Source: Promethearchaeota archaeon (GTDB lineage: Archaea; Asgardarchaeota; Lokiarchaeia; Sigyniarchaeales; SOKP01). Taken from it: a DNA stretch of 44,164 nucleotides. Shown here piece after piece: positions 11,419 through 44,163 of the stretch; position 1 is the stretch's first letter, and each line of letters opens with the position of its first letter. Made by a program: the position numbers and the translations under genes. The DNA lies in contig JAEOTS010000059.1 of assembly GCA_016839745.1 (NCBI GenBank), positions 1 to 44,164 of the forward strand, in the 5' to 3' direction. The notes beneath the pieces are model-generated. The model saw only the letters and a program-made list of their open reading frames with translations, made no database searches and was not told where the DNA came from.

Positions 11419-11808
11419 TTATTTTTCTAAAGATTTATCGATAAAATCACCAAAACCAGAAAAAATACTTACATCGCTATCCCAATTTACTAGATTTTTT
11501 GCATAAATTCTAAAAAAAACATCAGAGATTCGCATTAATTCATCAATAACTTTTTTCTCTTTCATTTTGGTTAAAGAGCTTCCAATAAAAAGAAAACTTC
11601 TCCGCTTAATTATGACAAATCGGAGATCGGATTTTTCAAATGAACTGATTCCACCATCACTAAGAGCTTCAGCGAATTTGTTTAGTGCACTCATTAATGC
11701 CCCAAAAAGTTGAGGATTTACTTTTTGATCGAATACTTTTGAGAATAGAACAATTCCGTTATCTGTTAAAACCCAGAGATCTTTTAGTATCTTCGGCACT
11801 AATACCAC
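11419..11808 (-). CDS. Stand-alone longin-like (adaptin sigma/roadblock-related) domain protein
   Basis: Pattern LWVLTDNGIVLFSK, QLFGALMSALNKFA, beta strands ISSF/RFVII/FLFIG, helix with F...Y, and F..F...ID; typical Asgard longin-like pattern. Confidence 0.7.
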   Translation of the reverse strand: MVLVPKILKDLWVLTDNGIVLFSKVFDQKVNPQLFGALMSALNKFAEALSDGGISSFEKSDLRFVIIKRRSFLFIGSSLTKMKEKKVIDELMRISDVFFRIYAKNLVNWDSDVSIFSGFGDFIDKSLEK

Positions 11809-11980
11809 AAATTACTGATTTTCCCTATCTAATATTCAATTAATATCGTGTTTTTACTTTTTAAAAAATCTTTTTTAGAAATTTTTCTTAACTGTATTAG
11901 AAGTAAAAAAATAAAATAGATAAAAATTTGTTTTTTATCTTCAAATTAAATTTTTATTAAAAAACATAGTTCAAAACTCA

Positions 11981-12862
11981 ATGATTTGGCAAACTAGAAT
12001 AACCAAAATAACCGGGGTTAAGTTACCACTTATAATGGGTGCGTTTGCAATAATAGGAAGAGCAGAATTTGCTAGTGCTTTTTCCAACGCTGATGGATTA
12101 GGTATTATTACTGCTATTAATTATCCTAAAATTGAAGCTTTCCGATCCGATCTTGAACTAATGATGAAATTAACAGATAAGCCTTTTGGAGTTAATTTTA
12201 CTATAACACCTCCATATCTTTTAAAAAAACGCTATGGAAGAACTGAGGAATCTTATTACGATTTCTTAGATTTAGCAATTGATATGGGAGTAAAAATATT
12301 TACTACTTCTGCGTATCAAGCTCCAGGATTAGGAACTAAGATAAAAGACGCAGGATGCTATTGGTTCCATAAATGCGTTACTATAAAGCACGCATTAGCC
12401 GCTCAAAATGCTGGAGTAGATGCAGTCACACTTGTAGGTCTTGAGGGAACGGGCTTTAAAAATCCTGTTCAAAATACCACGCTTGTTAATATTACGATGG
12501 CACGAAGATTACTCAATGTGCCTATAATTGCTGCTGGAGGCATAGGGGACGCAAGAGGTTTTCTTGGAGCGTTAGCGATGGGAGCGGACGCAGTTTGTTT
12601 AGGAAGCTCAATTATTGCTACAACAGAAAGCATTGCTTCAGAAAATTGGAAACAAAAGGTCTTAAATCAAGATATATTTGACGAGAAATACTACAAAAAA
12701 ATATTCCATCTCGAGTTAAAAGATTCTCCCATAGCATCAATGGCGATTGGCCATGTTGACGAAGCTTTGCCAATAAAAGTATTTATTGATAATATTATTA
12801 GCGAAACGGAGCATGTTCTAAAATGTTGGGGTTATAAGTCTGACACTTTTAACACAATATAA
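11981..12862 (+). CDS. Nitronate monooxygenase/FabK-family FMN TIM-barrel oxidoreductase (divergent)
   Basis: TRIT...G...P.I, GLGII, TDKPFGVN, PIIAAGGIGDARG...ALAMGADAV.LG. Confidence 0.85.
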   Translation: MIWQTRITKITGVKLPLIMGAFAIIGRAEFASAFSNADGLGIITAINYPKIEAFRSDLELMMKLTDKPFGVNFTITPPYLLKKRYGRTEESYYDFLDLAIDMGVKIFTTSAYQAPGLGTKIKDAGCYWFHKCVTIKHALAAQNAGVDAVTLVGLEGTGFKNPVQNTTLVNITMARRLLNVPIIAAGGIGDARGFLGALAMGADAVCLGSSIIATTESIASENWKQKVLNQDIFDEKYYKKIFHLELKDSPIASMAIGHVDEALPIKVFIDNIISETEHVLKCWGYKSDTFNTI

Positions 12863-35169: not shown

Positions 35170-36717
35170 TTACTGATTGACTAAGTCTTTTTCTAATTTC
35201 TTACCTTTCATTGCTTTTCTGAATTTTTCGAGTTGCTTTCGAGGAGTTACGGTAGGTCTTTCATATCTTTTCAATTTCGATTTTATCCCAAAGAGGTATT
35301 TAGATATATTTTTCAACTTTTCAATGTCGTAACGCATCATCATTGTAATGGTTTCCATAGCGGGACTCCCTCCACCGTGGAGACCGGCAACCTGCAGAAG
35401 TCCAGCAATTTCTGACACAGCGAAGGCTTCAATACCTTTAAAGCAACGTAAAACATTTTCTGGTTTGACTCTTGGATTTCTCTGCATATATTTCATAGCA
35501 AGAGGTCCTACCTCTTCAGAGAAGAACGATCCTTCAAAAGGTAAAGTTGCGATTAAACCACCTGAAAGGTCTGCTAAAATTTTATATTCTTCGTAAATCA
35601 TTTCACCCGCAAGTCTTCTTCCAGCATTAGTTAATATTTCATCTGGAACTTGAGTGCCTGAGGGCGCTTTTTCAGAGTGTTTCGCACTGGATTCTCCAGC
35701 TGCAAATACTAGTTCTGCTGTACCTATGAGATGTGAGAGCTTATCTTGAACATGTGATGTTTTTTCAATGCCATTATATTCTGCGACTAACGCTGCAGCG
35801 CTAGCTATTACTTCTGTTACAGCCGGCTTACAACCAGTGTAACTATGGCGATGATAATGAGCAAACATTAACGCTAAAAAGCCTGCATACGCTGTTTGTC
35901 TAGGATCTCCATGACCATTTAAAAATACTCTCTCGTTGGGAACAAAAACGTCATCAAATATTATAAATGTCTCAGCATCTCCAAACTTTGCGGCAGGCGA
36001 ATCTAAACGTTCACCTAACCTAAAACTAGCTGGTCGAGTTAACAATTTGACACCATCCCAATCGGCGGGCAAGGCAAAAGCGACTGCATAATCTTTATCT
36101 TCTGGCCCCATATATCTACAGGGAACCACAATCATTTCATCTGCGTATGGTGTGTTCGTTATATTTATTTTACACCCTCTGACAACAATGCCGTCTTCTC
36201 TTGTTTCGATAACTCTTAAGTACTGATCTGGATCTACTTGTTCGTGGGGCCTCTTCAAACGATCTCCTTTAGGATCAGTTTGAGCTGCGCTACCTACTAA
36301 ATCGTTCTCTTGAAAATACTCTAAGAATTTCTTAAATCTTTCATAGTGATCGGTTCCTAAAGCTTGATCCAGCTCGTACGTAATTACGGAAAGAGCGTTC
36401 ATAGCGTCGCAACCCATGCAGCGCTGGATACAACCACCTACGCGATGACAGAGTAATCGAGTCATCAATTGCTTTTTTAAAAGGTCATCTTCGCTCTGAT
36501 GGATGTGGGTAAACCTATTTATTTTTTTTCCGGTTAAATGAGAATTTACTACACATAAATCTTCGTATTCTTCGTCATGAGCGCAATCAAAGGTAACTTT
36601 CACGATATTCATCCCTCCTCGTAATCTGGGGTCGTCCCGACCAACTACTTCGTCACCGATATAAATATTCGGTTTCATTTTTAATAGTCTATTATAATAT
36701 TCTTCGAATGTTTTCAT
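35170..36717 (-). CDS. abfD: 4-hydroxybutyryl-CoA dehydratase/vinylacetyl-CoA isomerase family
   Basis: INRFTHIHQS.DDL.KK, CIQRC.G.DA (Fe-S Cys), QTDPKGDR, HYHRHSYTGCK (His/Cys ligands), LHGGGSP. Confidence 0.85.
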   Translation of the reverse strand: MKTFEEYYNRLLKMKPNIYIGDEVVGRDDPRLRGGMNIVKVTFDCAHDEEYEDLCVVNSHLTGKKINRFTHIHQSEDDLLKKQLMTRLLCHRVGGCIQRCMGCDAMNALSVITYELDQALGTDHYERFKKFLEYFQENDLVGSAAQTDPKGDRLKRPHEQVDPDQYLRVIETREDGIVVRGCKINITNTPYADEMIVVPCRYMGPEDKDYAVAFALPADWDGVKLLTRPASFRLGERLDSPAAKFGDAETFIIFDDVFVPNERVFLNGHGDPRQTAYAGFLALMFAHYHRHSYTGCKPAVTEVIASAAALVAEYNGIEKTSHVQDKLSHLIGTAELVFAAGESSAKHSEKAPSGTQVPDEILTNAGRRLAGEMIYEEYKILADLSGGLIATLPFEGSFFSEEVGPLAMKYMQRNPRVKPENVLRCFKGIEAFAVSEIAGLLQVAGLHGGGSPAMETITMMMRYDIEKLKNISKYLFGIKSKLKRYERPTVTPRKQLEKFRKAMKGKKLEKDLVNQ

Positions 36718-40988: not shown

Positions 40989-41289
40989 TAAATTGTTTTA
41001 ATTAATACAAAAAAAGGGCATATAAAAAGGATTGAGGAATAACATTACCCGATTGAAAAAGAAAAATTTTATACAATGTTTTCTAAAAAACTATCGCCCA
41101 ATTGCATTTTTAGATGGAGCAATAAAAACTTAAATTATGAAACTTCTTAATCCTTAAGTTTTAATACAATCATTTTGAAGATATAATTATAACTTTAAAA
41201 TATTATAAAAATATTAAAAAGAAATTCAGATTAAATTTATTTTAATATGAATAAAAACAAATTTTAATTTTAGAAATGGAGAAAAGCTT

Positions 41290-43545
41290 ATGAGCTTAAA
41301 AGAATTTACGAAGGAAATTTTCACGAGATATGGTTTCACGGAAGATCAAATCAATGCTTACATCGTTTATCTTAGAGTCCCAAGAGCTACATCATCTGAA
41401 GTCTACCTCTCCTTAGCAGAAGAACATCCCGAGTTGACATATGAATCCGTTCTTGAAATTACTGATTGGTTAGTGGAAAAAGGCTTTCTCAAAAAAGTAA
41501 CTGGGATTGTAGATAGATTTATTCCTTTAGAACCATTCTTTGAATTGTATATTGGAGAATCCAAAATCTTTAGAGACGAGATTGGTAAAATCAAGGACTC
41601 GATCTTAGCGGATCAATCAAATCGATTTGAAAAATTGGAAGCTATTCAAGATAAAAGTGTTAATGAAGTAGTAACTGCTGTTGATGATCAACTTAAAACT
41701 TTTTTTGATGATTCGGATACTAAAAACAATAATAAAAGAGACAGAATTAATAGCTCTAGAAACCGATTCACAGACACCTCAAAAACTTTGGAAGAAAATT
41801 TACATTCTATTATGGAAACGCTAAACTCTAATCTCAAGAATATTAGCGATACTAGAGTAAAAGAAAATGAATCAATGGTGAATAAAACTAAAGACGGTAT
41901 TACAGGCTTAATATCAAATTTATTAGTCGATTTTACAAAAAGAGTAGAAGAATTAGAAAGGGAATTGAAAAGCGATTTGGACGATCACGTCGACAGACAT
42001 CAAACTATCGCTAATGATCTTAAGCCAAGAATGGAACAAATTCTCGAAAAATATCTCGAACGCATGGACAAAATAGTTATCGATTTGAAAGAGAGGATTT
42101 CAAATCTATTAAAAGAACACTTAAGTCATCTTAAAAACACAACTGACACGCTCCAAACTAATTTGAAAGCTACTGTTGACGAAAGACACAGAGTCTTAAC
42201 GGATCAAACTAACGATTTTAAAAGCATGACTTTAACGCTAATTGATAATCTGTTAGAACACGCAAATAGATTTACGGACTTTACTGAAGAAATGGCGAAA
42301 AAAGGCTTTTTCTGGATGGGAAAGAAGAAAAAATTCAAAGCAAGGCACGAAACAACTATTCAAAATATCTTAATATATACTGAACCAATGAAGGATGATT
42401 TTACAACCACTAGTGAAGATTATATTAAAAACACAAGGGAAACAACAGATGGTTTAAAGACAGATGTTACCGAGATAATGACAACTGAGAACGATAATGT
42501 TGTTACAGAAACTACAGACCTTGATCATAAAGCTCAAGAAACAATCAACGTTCAATTAGAAACGCTGGCAACAGATATGGCGGGTGAAATTGACACTACC
42601 TTGCAAAATGGCGTAAAAGATTGTTCTGACACCACGGTTAAATTGAAAGATTCTTTAGAAAACTCGCTTAAAACACATCACAGACAATACGATGAAGCTA
42701 TTACTAGACATAAAGAGGAATCATTAAGGCATTATAACGAGTACGACACTGATGTCAAGAGAATTAAAGACGACTGGATTAGGGACCTCGATGATAAATT
42801 TATAGGTGGAAAAAGGGACACTTCAGATAAAATTACCGCTGAGATTAACTTATGGGGTGATGAGTCAGCAGATTTGGATAGAAATTTAAGTGAAATGTTA
42901 ATAGATCATAAATCCAAATATGAGGAAAATGCGAAAATCTTAGAAAATAGTCTCTCTACTACCACTCGAGATACTACACAGAATATTAAAGATGCAATAG
43001 CAGATTTCACTCTTCAATTTATGAATTCTATTGACGACGGTACCGAGCTTGCTGAAAAAAATGAAAATAAACTTGGCGATATACACAAAGCTTCAAGTTC
43101 TATTCCAGAAATAAAAGATATTACTACTTGGCAAGTAGTAGGACGAGACGCGTTAATAGCTGCTATAAAGGACGCTATTTATAGGGTTAAATCATCGATC
43201 ATTATTGTAATGCCCTATGTAATACCTGAGATTTTACAAATTATAAGCGAATACGCTTATCAGAAGAAAGCTGTGCGCTTTATGCTTACCTCACGCTTCG
43301 AGATGGGGCAGTATGGTGATATAATACGCAAAATGATGGGGTTAGGCAACATCCAGTTCAGACAACTTAGTGGCGCAGGAGAATTCTTCGCACTCACTCG
43401 AGACGCAGAGGAAGTCATAATTGGTCCCGCAACTGACAAAGAAGGCGAGATGATAAGCGTCATTTCCAATCAAAGCGCGTTCAGTATTTTATATAGTCAG
43501 TTTATAGGGCCTATTTTTCAGGCTAATTCGAGACCTATTAAGTAA
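41290..43545 (+). CDS. TrmB-like protein: N-terminal wHTH, ~520-aa helical insert, C-terminal PLD-like/TrmB effector-type domain
   Basis: YGFTEDQINAYIVYL....ATSSEV...LVEKGFL......RFIPLEP; long amphipathic helical region; W.VVGRDAL...IKDAI.R.KSSIIIVMP...RDAEEVIIGP. Confidence 0.78.
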   Translation: MSLKEFTKEIFTRYGFTEDQINAYIVYLRVPRATSSEVYLSLAEEHPELTYESVLEITDWLVEKGFLKKVTGIVDRFIPLEPFFELYIGESKIFRDEIGKIKDSILADQSNRFEKLEAIQDKSVNEVVTAVDDQLKTFFDDSDTKNNNKRDRINSSRNRFTDTSKTLEENLHSIMETLNSNLKNISDTRVKENESMVNKTKDGITGLISNLLVDFTKRVEELERELKSDLDDHVDRHQTIANDLKPRMEQILEKYLERMDKIVIDLKERISNLLKEHLSHLKNTTDTLQTNLKATVDERHRVLTDQTNDFKSMTLTLIDNLLEHANRFTDFTEEMAKKGFFWMGKKKKFKARHETTIQNILIYTEPMKDDFTTTSEDYIKNTRETTDGLKTDVTEIMTTENDNVVTETTDLDHKAQETINVQLETLATDMAGEIDTTLQNGVKDCSDTTVKLKDSLENSLKTHHRQYDEAITRHKEESLRHYNEYDTDVKRIKDDWIRDLDDKFIGGKRDTSDKITAEINLWGDESADLDRNLSEMLIDHKSKYEENAKILENSLSTTTRDTTQNIKDAIADFTLQFMNSIDDGTELAEKNENKLGDIHKASSSIPEIKDITTWQVVGRDALIAAIKDAIYRVKSSIIIVMPYVIPEILQIISEYAYQKKAVRFMLTSRFEMGQYGDIIRKMMGLGNIQFRQLSGAGEFFALTRDAEEVIIGPATDKEGEMISVISNQSAFSILYSQFIGPIFQANSRPIK

Positions 43546-43746
43546 GAGGAGCTTAACCAAAATCCAAAACCCGCAGATTAAATACAGGATTCATTTTTTA
43601 TCTTTCTTTTTTTTACATTTTGAACGGATCCCTTCAAAGAAAAAACTTTTTTCGAAAGCTCAAGGTGATTAATCATATTTAGTATTAATTATCTTATATC
43701 TTTTTTTTTTTCGTAATTAAAAAGAAATTATTATCTTATTAAATAA

Positions 43747-44163
43747 TTATTTAATCTCTTCCTCAATTTTCGTTGGTTTTACCTTTCTTACAAATGATCG
43801 TCCTATAATGGCAATAACGACTCCCCCAAATCCTAATCCTGTACCATAATTGAATCGATTAAAAAGCTCTTCTATGTAAAATACTATAGTTGGATCTGTT
43901 ATAACTCCTGTAAGACGTATTATCAGTGAAAGTATCCATATAATTAGAGCTATAGTTCCAAAAGCTAATCCAATCGTAATTATAAATTTCCCTAGCCTTA
44001 TTGCACCCATCGCTATTAATATTACTCCAGCAATTACAGCAGCGCCTCCTAAATCCGCAATCCATCTAAAAATTACATTAACAATTACATTGAAAATTGG
44101 TTCGTATTCTGGCCATTGATTCGCAACTATCAAATAAAGAGTCTCAAATATTTGAATACCTCC
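43747..44163 (-). CDS. Hypothetical membrane protein (5'-truncated by window edge)
   Basis: Multi-TM, Gly-rich; frame stays open upstream of the TTG at 44133 (GGIQIFETLY) to the window end. Confidence 0.7.
   Translation of the reverse strand, partial: GGIQIFETLYLIVANQWPEYEPIFNVIVNVIFRWIADLGGAAVIAGVILIAMGAIRLGKFIITIGLAFGTIALIIWILSLIIRLTGVITDPTIVFYIEELFNRFNYGTGLGFGGVVIAIIGRSFVRKVKPTKIEEEIK

Follow-up and report, generated by a model that had tools for sequence, protein, structure and literature searches.

In TrmB (3qph, 2f5t) and TrmBL2 (5bpd, 5bpi, 5box, 5bqt), a winged helix is followed by a "middle" domain of the phospholipase D (PLD)-like type that lacks the HKD motif, and the two modules are joined by one helix of ~30 residues. 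DNA binding has been demonstrated for TrmBL2, which in Thermococcus is a nucleoid protein and a roadblock for Smc (PMC11840125). Long antiparallel helical hairpins form the cytoplasmic part of chemoreceptors (methyl-accepting chemotaxis proteins, MCPs), whose length classes arise from insertions or deletions (indels) placed symmetrically in the two arms and whose conservation is highest at the tip (PMC5907407). SMC, Rad50, and MukB carry an antiparallel coiled coil, intramolecular and tens of nanometers long, that divides the head and has a specialized apex. EEA1 and the golgins are rigid rods of tens of nanometers, with one end carrying an element that binds a membrane and the opposite end a module that binds a partner. 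The protein described here is encoded in a stretch of DNA of 44,164 nucleotides (nt) from a Promethearchaeota archaeon (contig JAEOTS010000059.1, positions 1 to 44,164; referred to as the window). Its gene, at positions 41290 to 43545 of the forward strand, is the sole long open reading frame (ORF) at the locus and, by frame translation, encodes 751 amino acids (aa) plus a stop. Both ends of the product, called the rod protein below, are of the TrmB type, and like TrmBL2 it has no sugar-binding β-barrel subdomain. In contrast to the single linker helix of TrmB and TrmBL2, however, its two modules are separated by ~520 residues that fold out and back.

AlphaFold2, run with 29 orthologues, predicted two helices at residues 83 to 337 and 346 to 603, with the sole break at residues 338 to 345 (GFFWMGKK; full-length predicted local distance difference test [pLDDT] score, 63). 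The helical insert spans residues ~83 to 603, and its midpoint, ~343, coincides with the center (residue 343) of the motif KKGFFWMGKKKKF (residues 337 to 349, nt 42298 to 42336). When the middle of the model was compared with known structures using VIA-align, all matches were long antiparallel hairpins centered at about residue 340, comprising the antifreeze protein Maxi (residues 242 to 438), chemoreceptors (2ch7 and 3zx6, residues 180 to 501), and the Pyrococcus Smc coiled coil (5xg2, residues 212 to 469). Stronger evidence than the model came from the pattern of indels among relatives. For these measurements, arm 1 began at the conserved Pro that follows the wing and ended at the Gly of the tip, and arm 2 ran from the Lys of the tip as far as the conserved Trp in the C-terminal domain. 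Arms 1 and 2 were 257 and 269 residues in the rod protein itself (P0001, 751 aa), 301 and 313 in P0122 (848 aa), 257 and 269 in P0123 (755 aa), 319 and 331 in P0124 (873 aa), 363 and 375 in P0125 (962 aa), 308 and 320 in P0126 (853 aa), and 407 and 419 in P0127 (1050 aa). The difference was -12 in every case and likewise in a 762-aa Heimdallarchaeal protein; most of this constant 12-residue offset is made up by the short linker at residues 604 to 613.

Realignment of the seven proteins revealed that the arm indels were mirrored both in size and in distance from the tip, with sizes of 11, 18, 22, 44, and 88 aa recurring. An 11-aa indel at -157 to -147 from the tip in arm 1 was partnered by 11 aa at +144 to +154 in arm 2, and an 18-aa indel at -210 to -193 by 18 aa at +188 to +205. 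Larger steps were also balanced, sometimes in different portions, with 22 + 22 aa in arm 1 answered by 44 aa in arm 2, 88 aa by 44 + 44 aa, and 150 aa by 62 + 44 + 44 aa. The 144 residues on either side of the tip were free of indels. It is therefore close to proven that the insert folds back as an antiparallel two-helix hairpin of ~255 residues per arm, corresponding at 0.15 nm per residue to ~38 nm. The initial annotation of this DNA, made from the letters alone, had placed ~520 aa of helix between a TrmB-type winged helix-turn-helix and a TrmB/PLD-like domain and had predicted an antiparallel hairpin with the motif at its midpoint and tip, and this layout was borne out by the predicted topology, the compensating indels, and the structure matches, as well as by the domain assignments given below.

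More than 120 clusters were found at 72 to 95% identity, and every one was exactly 751 aa long; a 29-row sample of these aligned without a single indel. Because of this constancy, a chance origin of the TrmB-type rod ORF can be dismissed. Comparison of the sequences comes near to demonstrating that rod length is under selection, since it is fixed at 751 aa within the clade and changes between clades only by matched, mirror-placed steps.

The hydrophobic periodicity of the insert was 3.65 residues, and an 11/3 phase persisted unchanged over ~240 residues of either arm, jumping once only, at the tip. Written in rows of 11, both arms displayed an evident a-d-e-h core, with 50 to 80% hydrophobic residues at core positions and Asp-rich positions facing outward. 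The core was more conserved than the surface (0.92 versus 0.80 and 0.89 versus 0.79), and the recurring indel sizes fit an 11-residue repeat, 18 being 11 + 7. Together, these data show, or very nearly show, that the rod is a strict, uninterrupted hendecad (11/3) coiled coil, which would make it straight.

Exchangeable apolipoproteins share the 11-residue amphipathic periodicity and gave weak sequence matches in both Pfam (PF01442) and the Protein Data Bank (PDB). Searched against Pfam and NCBIfam, the whole 751-aa protein returned only sub-threshold matches of coiled-coil type (Apolipoprotein, ZorA tail, and SpiroCoCo), which were rejected as periodicity matches. A PDB sequence search with the whole protein returned only apolipoproteins, with apoA-I and apoA-IV best, at E values of ≥0.001. 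These matches raise the reading that the protein is a lipid binder resembling exchangeable apolipoproteins or perilipins, in which the hairpin opens and both 11/3 helices lie flat on lipid. The PF01442 model matched 27/27 relatives (best E value, 1.5e-35), and an 11/3 periodicity keeps the hydrophobic face straight. The rod protein itself, however, scored 25.1 bits against a cutoff of 90, and there were no Pro-punctuated 22-mers, the 520 residues containing only two prolines (P246 and P366). The rod is also strongly acidic and rich in Thr and Asp, the a-d-e-h pattern is the classical core of hendecad coiled coils and is better conserved than the surface, and the mirror-matched indels demand that the arms pair. 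The apolipoprotein matches are best explained by the shared 11-residue periodicity, and a flat-lying lipid binder is very improbable.

One distant clade departed from this pattern at the midpoint. Proteins of the "PPF...KTWN" clade exhibited neither a Gly/Pro/basic/aromatic break nor a hendecad phase jump there, and the indels among them numbered just three (22, 29, and 114 aa), each straddling or abutting the exact midpoint. Indels at this position are what trimming of a hairpin at its tip would give, and therefore the hairpin stands. A different topology for this clade was set aside, as all of the indels lie on the midpoint and only the chemistry of the tip differs. Members of the clade (P0191, P0193, P0202, P0208, P0212, P0216, and others) are 1000 to 1140 aa long and bear acidic N-terminal extensions with net charges down to -19.

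The assignment of the N-terminal domain relied on relatives. In the 751-aa protein, the winged helix matched PF01978 with an E value of 0.016 and 15.5 bits, under the cutoff of 25.6, while 22/27 full-length relatives were matched by the model (best E value, 1.3e-11) and short-rod relatives exceeded Pfam's own PF01978 cutoff (32.1 bits). The top PDB match of a profile of the domain was TrmB (3qph, residues 11 to 93; E value, 0.0026). By transitivity through these relatives, the N-terminal winged helix is judged to be real and a member of the TrmB family. The C-terminal domain, searched alone, had no Pfam match. The first PDB match of its profile was again TrmB (3qph, residues 88 to 201; E value, 0.001), with TKSSIxIVxP, GNIQFRQ, and RDAEE aligned to AKNEVIVVTPS, GNFFVRQ, and TDGKE, and one relative, P0239, exceeded the PF11495 threshold (29.6 versus 22.2 bits) over model positions 3 to 122 of 233. 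The AlphaFold2 model of this domain had a pLDDT of 93.8, and its structure matches were TrmB (2f5t; E value, 2e-9) and TrmBL2 (template modeling [TM] score, 0.74), followed by other proteins of the PLD fold (FAM83, Nuc, Zucchini, and PLD). A Foldseek search with the full-length model yielded nothing at an E value of ≤0.001 and only winged-helix matches. Residues 607 to 751 contain no histidine and hence no HKD motif (HxK(x)4D), so from its sequence the C-terminal domain is classed as a pseudo-PLD, as in TrmB. Within it, N687, D705, and E708 were invariant across the family.

The matches reached only the first half of PF11495 and 3qph up to residue ~201 of 342, and the protein ends ~138 residues past the start of the PLD-like domain. 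The second, sugar-binding β-barrel half of the TrmB effector domain is absent, and the head is therefore of the TrmBL2 type. It is shown, or nearly so, that both ends derive from one TrmB/TrmBL2-family protein and are kept in the same order. Such descent would fit an ordinary sequence-specific transcription regulator in which the coiled coil serves as an elaborate dimerization or sensor domain, and some orthologues bear the Joint Genome Institute (JGI) label "sugar-specific transcriptional regulator TrmB"; short-rod paralogues also exist. This explanation is nevertheless hard to credit, given that the sugar-binding subdomain is missing, that the recognition helix is degenerate and acidic, and that dimerization alone does not account for a strict length of 751 aa, matched 11-residue steps, and an invariant tip.

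Unlike in TrmB and TrmBL2, the winged helix is acidic and its recognition helix is degenerate. The net charge of the winged helix was -5 to -7 in the rod protein; among 26 relatives, only one had a positive value, and the others lay at 0 or below, reaching -19. When the recognition helix YESVLEITDW was aligned to YNRVYDTISS of TrmB, E, S, L, E, and D were found where TrmB has N, R, Y, D, and T. The wing retains basic K67 to K69 and R76. Judged on these residues, the head looks unfit for canonical reading of DNA, and DNA binding appears doubtful. Across the whole protein, the net charge was -35, distributed as -5 in the winged helix, -12 in arm 1, +8 at the tip, -27 in arm 2, and +1 in the C-terminal domain. 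These values bear on the proposal of the initial annotation that the protein is a chromosome-membrane tether or structural chromatin protein, with a head that binds DNA as TrmBL2 does and a tip that inserts into lipid. In favor of such a tether are the homology of both head domains to TrmB and to TrmBL2, itself a nucleoid protein, the basic residues kept in the wing, and a tip that is hydrophobic, basic, and invariant in the clade. The acidic character of the winged helix, non-basic in nearly all of the family, the altered recognition helix, and an overall charge unfavorable near DNA argue against it, and no chromatin or segregation genes were found nearby. A DNA-to-membrane tether was rated low because the head looks unfit for DNA, and we consider it unlikely. 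Of that earlier interpretation, the architecture survived, and the assigned role is unsupported as it was stated.

The tip stood out from the rest of the protein, which is acidic, as the sole strongly basic spot, with a net charge of +8 over residues 337 to 353. On the Wimley-White interfacial scale, no segment of the protein scored lower than its GFFWM (-4.3 kcal/mol), which was also the only one both hydrophobic and basic; pLDDT was low here, consistent with a flexible loop. Transmembrane segments and signal peptides were not detected in the rod protein, the maximum Kyte-Doolittle value over 19 residues being 1.67, in a buried β-strand and helix of the C-terminal domain. Among the 29 orthologues (72 to 95% identity), F340, W342, G344, and K345 to K348 were invariant, while position 341 was only F or L and position 343 only M, L, or V. 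In sister clades (40 to 54% identity), the tip reads KRG-SAWKALFL-GKHK and so keeps its hydrophobic-basic character; these tips ranked 1 to 6 of 500 to 800 windows by interfacial hydrophobicity, with net charges of +2 to +8. A Jordarchaeal protein has SFFG at the tip position. Conservation of the motif in Asgard homologues thus extends to identity within the 751-aa clade and to its properties in sister clades, and it is not family-wide. A search of the source genome for basic-hydrophobic-basic motifs found the tip motif to be unique, so that it offers no shared targeting signal as a guide. A lipid-inserting tip is plausible from its composition, and the aliphatic replacements (WKALFL) would fit lipid insertion better than base stacking.

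Conservation also extended from the tip down one side of the rod. The surface of arm 1 at residues 251 to 335 was conserved as highly as the globular domains, and residues 251 to 350, comprising the tip and the adjoining arm 1 surface, were the most conserved part of the protein (0.90 to 0.93 per 25-aa bin). The mirror stretch of arm 2 was much less conserved (surface, 0.89 versus 0.77). This asymmetry near the tip points to a putative second, asymmetric contact surface.

The reading favored here, to which we assign a probability of about 0.4, is that the protein is a fixed-length spacer with its basic-hydrophobic tip docked peripherally on a membrane and its acidic rod standing off. It is shown, or nearly so, that the single linker helix of a TrmB/TrmBL2-type protein has been expanded into a ~38-nm antiparallel hendecad hairpin, with both head domains together at one end of the rod and a Gly-flanked FFWM loop between Lys runs at the other. 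In the favored scheme, this rod would act as a fixed-length spacer or tether. The tip, with its charge of +8 and the most interface-hydrophobic segment, would dock as a peripheral anchor on a surface of anionic character, for which the inner side of the cell membrane is the most likely candidate, and the rod, at -39 over both arms, would be repelled from that surface and stand off, thereby holding the head ~38 nm away. The degenerate winged helix and the pseudo-PLD domain would form an oligomerization or docking module whose partner need not be DNA, and the conserved arm 1 surface at residues 251 to 335, next to the tip, would be a likely second contact, either for dimerization or for a partner. 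EEA1 and the golgins offer a likeness that would be functional only, as they are parallel heptad dimers with FYVE, GRIP, or transmembrane anchors and have no relationship to the rod protein in sequence or fold.

Several observations weigh against this scheme. The full-length AlphaFold2 model was of moderate confidence. A basic/aromatic/Gly-Pro maximum at the midpoint was present in only 10/39 cluster representatives (~1 expected by chance), and the tip of the long "PPF...KTWN" clade is plain; as the tip chemistry is not family-wide, a membrane anchor cannot be the universal mechanism of the family. In the gene context, no membrane or chromatin partner and no segregation genes were found, and the neighbors differ in a 45%-identical relative and in a Jordarchaeales relative. 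Moreover, nucleic acid or protein would be equally suitable ligands for a loop that is basic and aromatic.

The last point leads to a somewhat unlikely alternative, in which the tip docks a nucleic acid or protein partner rather than a membrane and the rod serves as a scaffold or signaling stalk. Aromatic and Lys residues are typical of nucleic acid binding, and KKGFFW bears a superficial resemblance to the RNP1 and cold-shock KGFGF motifs. Were the partner a protein, the parallel would be with the chemoreceptor hairpin, whose tip binds CheA and CheW, and the strong, one-sided conservation of residues 251 to 350 fits a specific partner surface. The chemoreceptors are also alike in architecture, being long antiparallel helical hairpins with symmetric indels and a conserved tip (PMC5907407), and the model superposed on 2ch7 and 3zx6. 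They differ in that they form four-helix dimers of ~20 to 26 nm built of heptads, are anchored in the membrane at the other end, and carry an MCPsignal domain. The rod protein has an 11/3 rather than a 7/2 repeat, no transmembrane segment, and a basic-hydrophobic tip, and a Pfam search gave no MCPsignal match at an E value of ≤1. Docking on a partner other than a membrane is further disfavored by the absence of a conserved partner gene among the neighbors, by the uniqueness of the tip motif in the genome, and by the exchange of aromatics for aliphatic WKALFL or FKALLS in sister clades, which is better suited to lipid than to base stacking.

A bridge of the SMC/Rad50 kind would pair two rods, either through their tips, where the hydrophobic loop would serve as a "hook," or through their heads, setting cargoes ~76 nm apart. 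The layout is indeed shared, in that an antiparallel coiled coil interrupts the head, the apex is special, and the indels of the two arms are matched; the model matched 5xg2, and an FFWM loop, if exposed, would tend to self-associate. Unlike SMC and Rad50, however, the rod protein has no ABC ATPase head, hinge, or zinc hook, and its strict hendecad repeat lacks the interruptions that are typical of SMC arms. Pfam and NCBIfam gave no match to an ATPase or SMC family, the apex has no CxxC and no Cys or His for a metal hook, and, in the absence of a bridging polyanion, a second tip should be repelled by the eight basic residues that surround the loop. Such a bridge is improbable. Compared with each of these alternatives, peripheral docking of the tip on a membrane, with the rod as spacer, is the reading retained here.

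An exhaustive search found 169 relatives of the rod protein. The family (A2) profile matched 278/301 Asgard genomes, including 88/90 of high quality, and 68/70 genera (E value, ≤1e-10), a count that takes in shorter paralogues sharing the head domains; the frames ranged from 751 to ~1800 aa. Named members of the 751-aa clusters were all from metagenome-assembled genomes of the Lokiarchaeia type, while those of the wider family were from Loki-, Hel-, Hod-, Heimdall-, Jord-, and Atabeyarchaeia. Short-rod forms were 350 to 390 aa. In the literature on TrmB, on hendecad/antiparallel or tethering coiled coils in Asgard and other archaea, and on Prometheoarchaeum, no description of the family was found. 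The family is near-universal in the Asgard genomes searched and slowly evolving, yet annotated only as "hypothetical protein" or mislabeled "TrmB," and its architecture is that of a rigid rod of selected length, not of a regulator. Independently of function, the family is a very clean natural case of hendecad coiled-coil length engineering through matched, mirror-placed indels. Asgard cell architecture, including protrusions, the actin cytoskeleton, and nucleoid placement, bears on the origin of eukaryotic cell organization, and among candidate components of that architecture this conserved 38-nm spacer, with its membrane-type tip, is concrete and clonable. A more speculative proposal, which we regard as a long shot, is that length-quantized hendecad rods, ~38 nm here and longer elsewhere, set a fixed distance in Asgard cells between the cell membrane and whatever cargo the head binds, for instance the nucleoid, the cytoskeleton, or a second membrane. 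If true, these rods would have been recruited from a transcription factor scaffold and would be the prokaryotic equivalent of nucleoid-envelope spacers or of the long coiled-coil tethers of eukaryotes.

The head domains also occur in other combinations. The source genome encodes a 655-aa paralogue (C130, 64253 to 66259, +) with a TrmB winged helix, a ~260-aa helical region, a PLD-like domain, and a long tail; a 431-aa paralogue (C116, around 11732 to 12115, -) with a receiver domain, a coiled coil, a PLD-like domain, and a Cys-rich tail; and a 293-aa paralogue (C147, 20573 to 21469, +) that combines a PLD-like domain with a coiled coil almost identical to the one in the 431-aa receiver protein. 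From the fusion to a receiver, the PLD-like module seems able to serve as a regulated output domain. In P0158 and P0225 (311 to 373 aa), the PLD-like domain is fused to TPR repeats, which marks it as a promiscuous module. Stand-alone PLD-like proteins of ~190 to 220 aa (P0157, P0159, P0174, P0185, P0188, P0190, P0192, and P0200) have C-terminal polylysine tails (for example, KKKKEKKKKK) that often precede a G-L/I-x-E-S-D-L motif. None of these was found in the source genome, which is 89% complete; possible roles for them are as separate partners with basic tails or as analogues of the head domain in the rod protein.

The features of the gene and its surroundings are collected in Table 1.

Table 1. 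Positions in the window of the rod gene, its parts, and neighboring genes
Feature	Residues	Positions	Strand	Remarks
HpaB family protein (4-hydroxyphenylacetate hydroxylase/4-hydroxybutyryl-CoA dehydratase-like)		35170..36717	-	Adjoins the WD40 gene; ordinary Pfam match
WD40 β-propeller protein, 292 aa		34191..35069	-	Ordinary Pfam match
Cation-efflux (CDF) protein, 472 aa		37512..38930	+	
Protein of 417 aa		38954..40207	-	Upstream; divergent from the coding sequence
Protein of 232 aa		40290..40988	-	Upstream; divergent from the coding sequence; no Pfam match
GGAG Shine-Dalgarno-like box		41278..41281	+	8 nt 5' of the ATG; read directly; function inferred
Coding sequence of the rod protein	1-751	41290..43545	+	Monocistronic; upstream gene divergent, downstream gene convergent
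TrmB-type winged helix-turn-helix	1-82	41290..41535	+	Pfam in relatives, model, and profile; acidic (net -5)
Arm 1	83-337	41536..42300	+	One continuous helix; ~23 hendecads; a-d-e-h core; Asp-rich f positions
Tip, KK-GFFWMG-KKKKFK	337-350	42298..42339	+	Gly-flanked hydrophobic loop between Lys runs
Arm 2	346-603	42325..43098	+	Returning helix; hendecad a-d-e-h core richer in Thr/Ala; net -27
Short non-helical linker, SIPEIKDITT	604-613	43099..43128	+	pLDDT <50 at 594-616
PLD-like domain, TrmB/TrmBL2 "middle domain" type	614-751	43129..43542	+	Profile and AlphaFold2 fold matches
T-rich run		43594..43614	+	~50 nt 3' of the stop; read directly
Downstream gene		43747..44133		Convergent with the coding sequence

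The first four residues, M1-S2-L3-K4, were unchanged in the 29 orthologues. The 300-nt intergenic region 5' of the gene is AT-rich with TATA-like runs, and the T-rich run beyond the stop resembles an archaeal oligo-T terminator and may act as one. Comparison of the window with the genomes of relatives revealed no conserved operon around the rod gene. The 417-aa protein has hydrophobic N-terminal and central stretches that by eye resemble membrane segments, together with a C-terminal double winged helix (HTH_HVO_0163_N, ArsR-like), and the 232-aa protein has hydrophobic stretches at both termini. This gene pair was also found upstream of a 72%-identical orthologue in CP070805.1 and was absent in more distant genomes. 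The cation-efflux protein is unusual in layout among CDF transporters, with an N-terminal segment resembling a winged helix (HTH_45, sub-threshold) and, at the C terminus, a long extension whose hydrophobic end may form a transmembrane helix.

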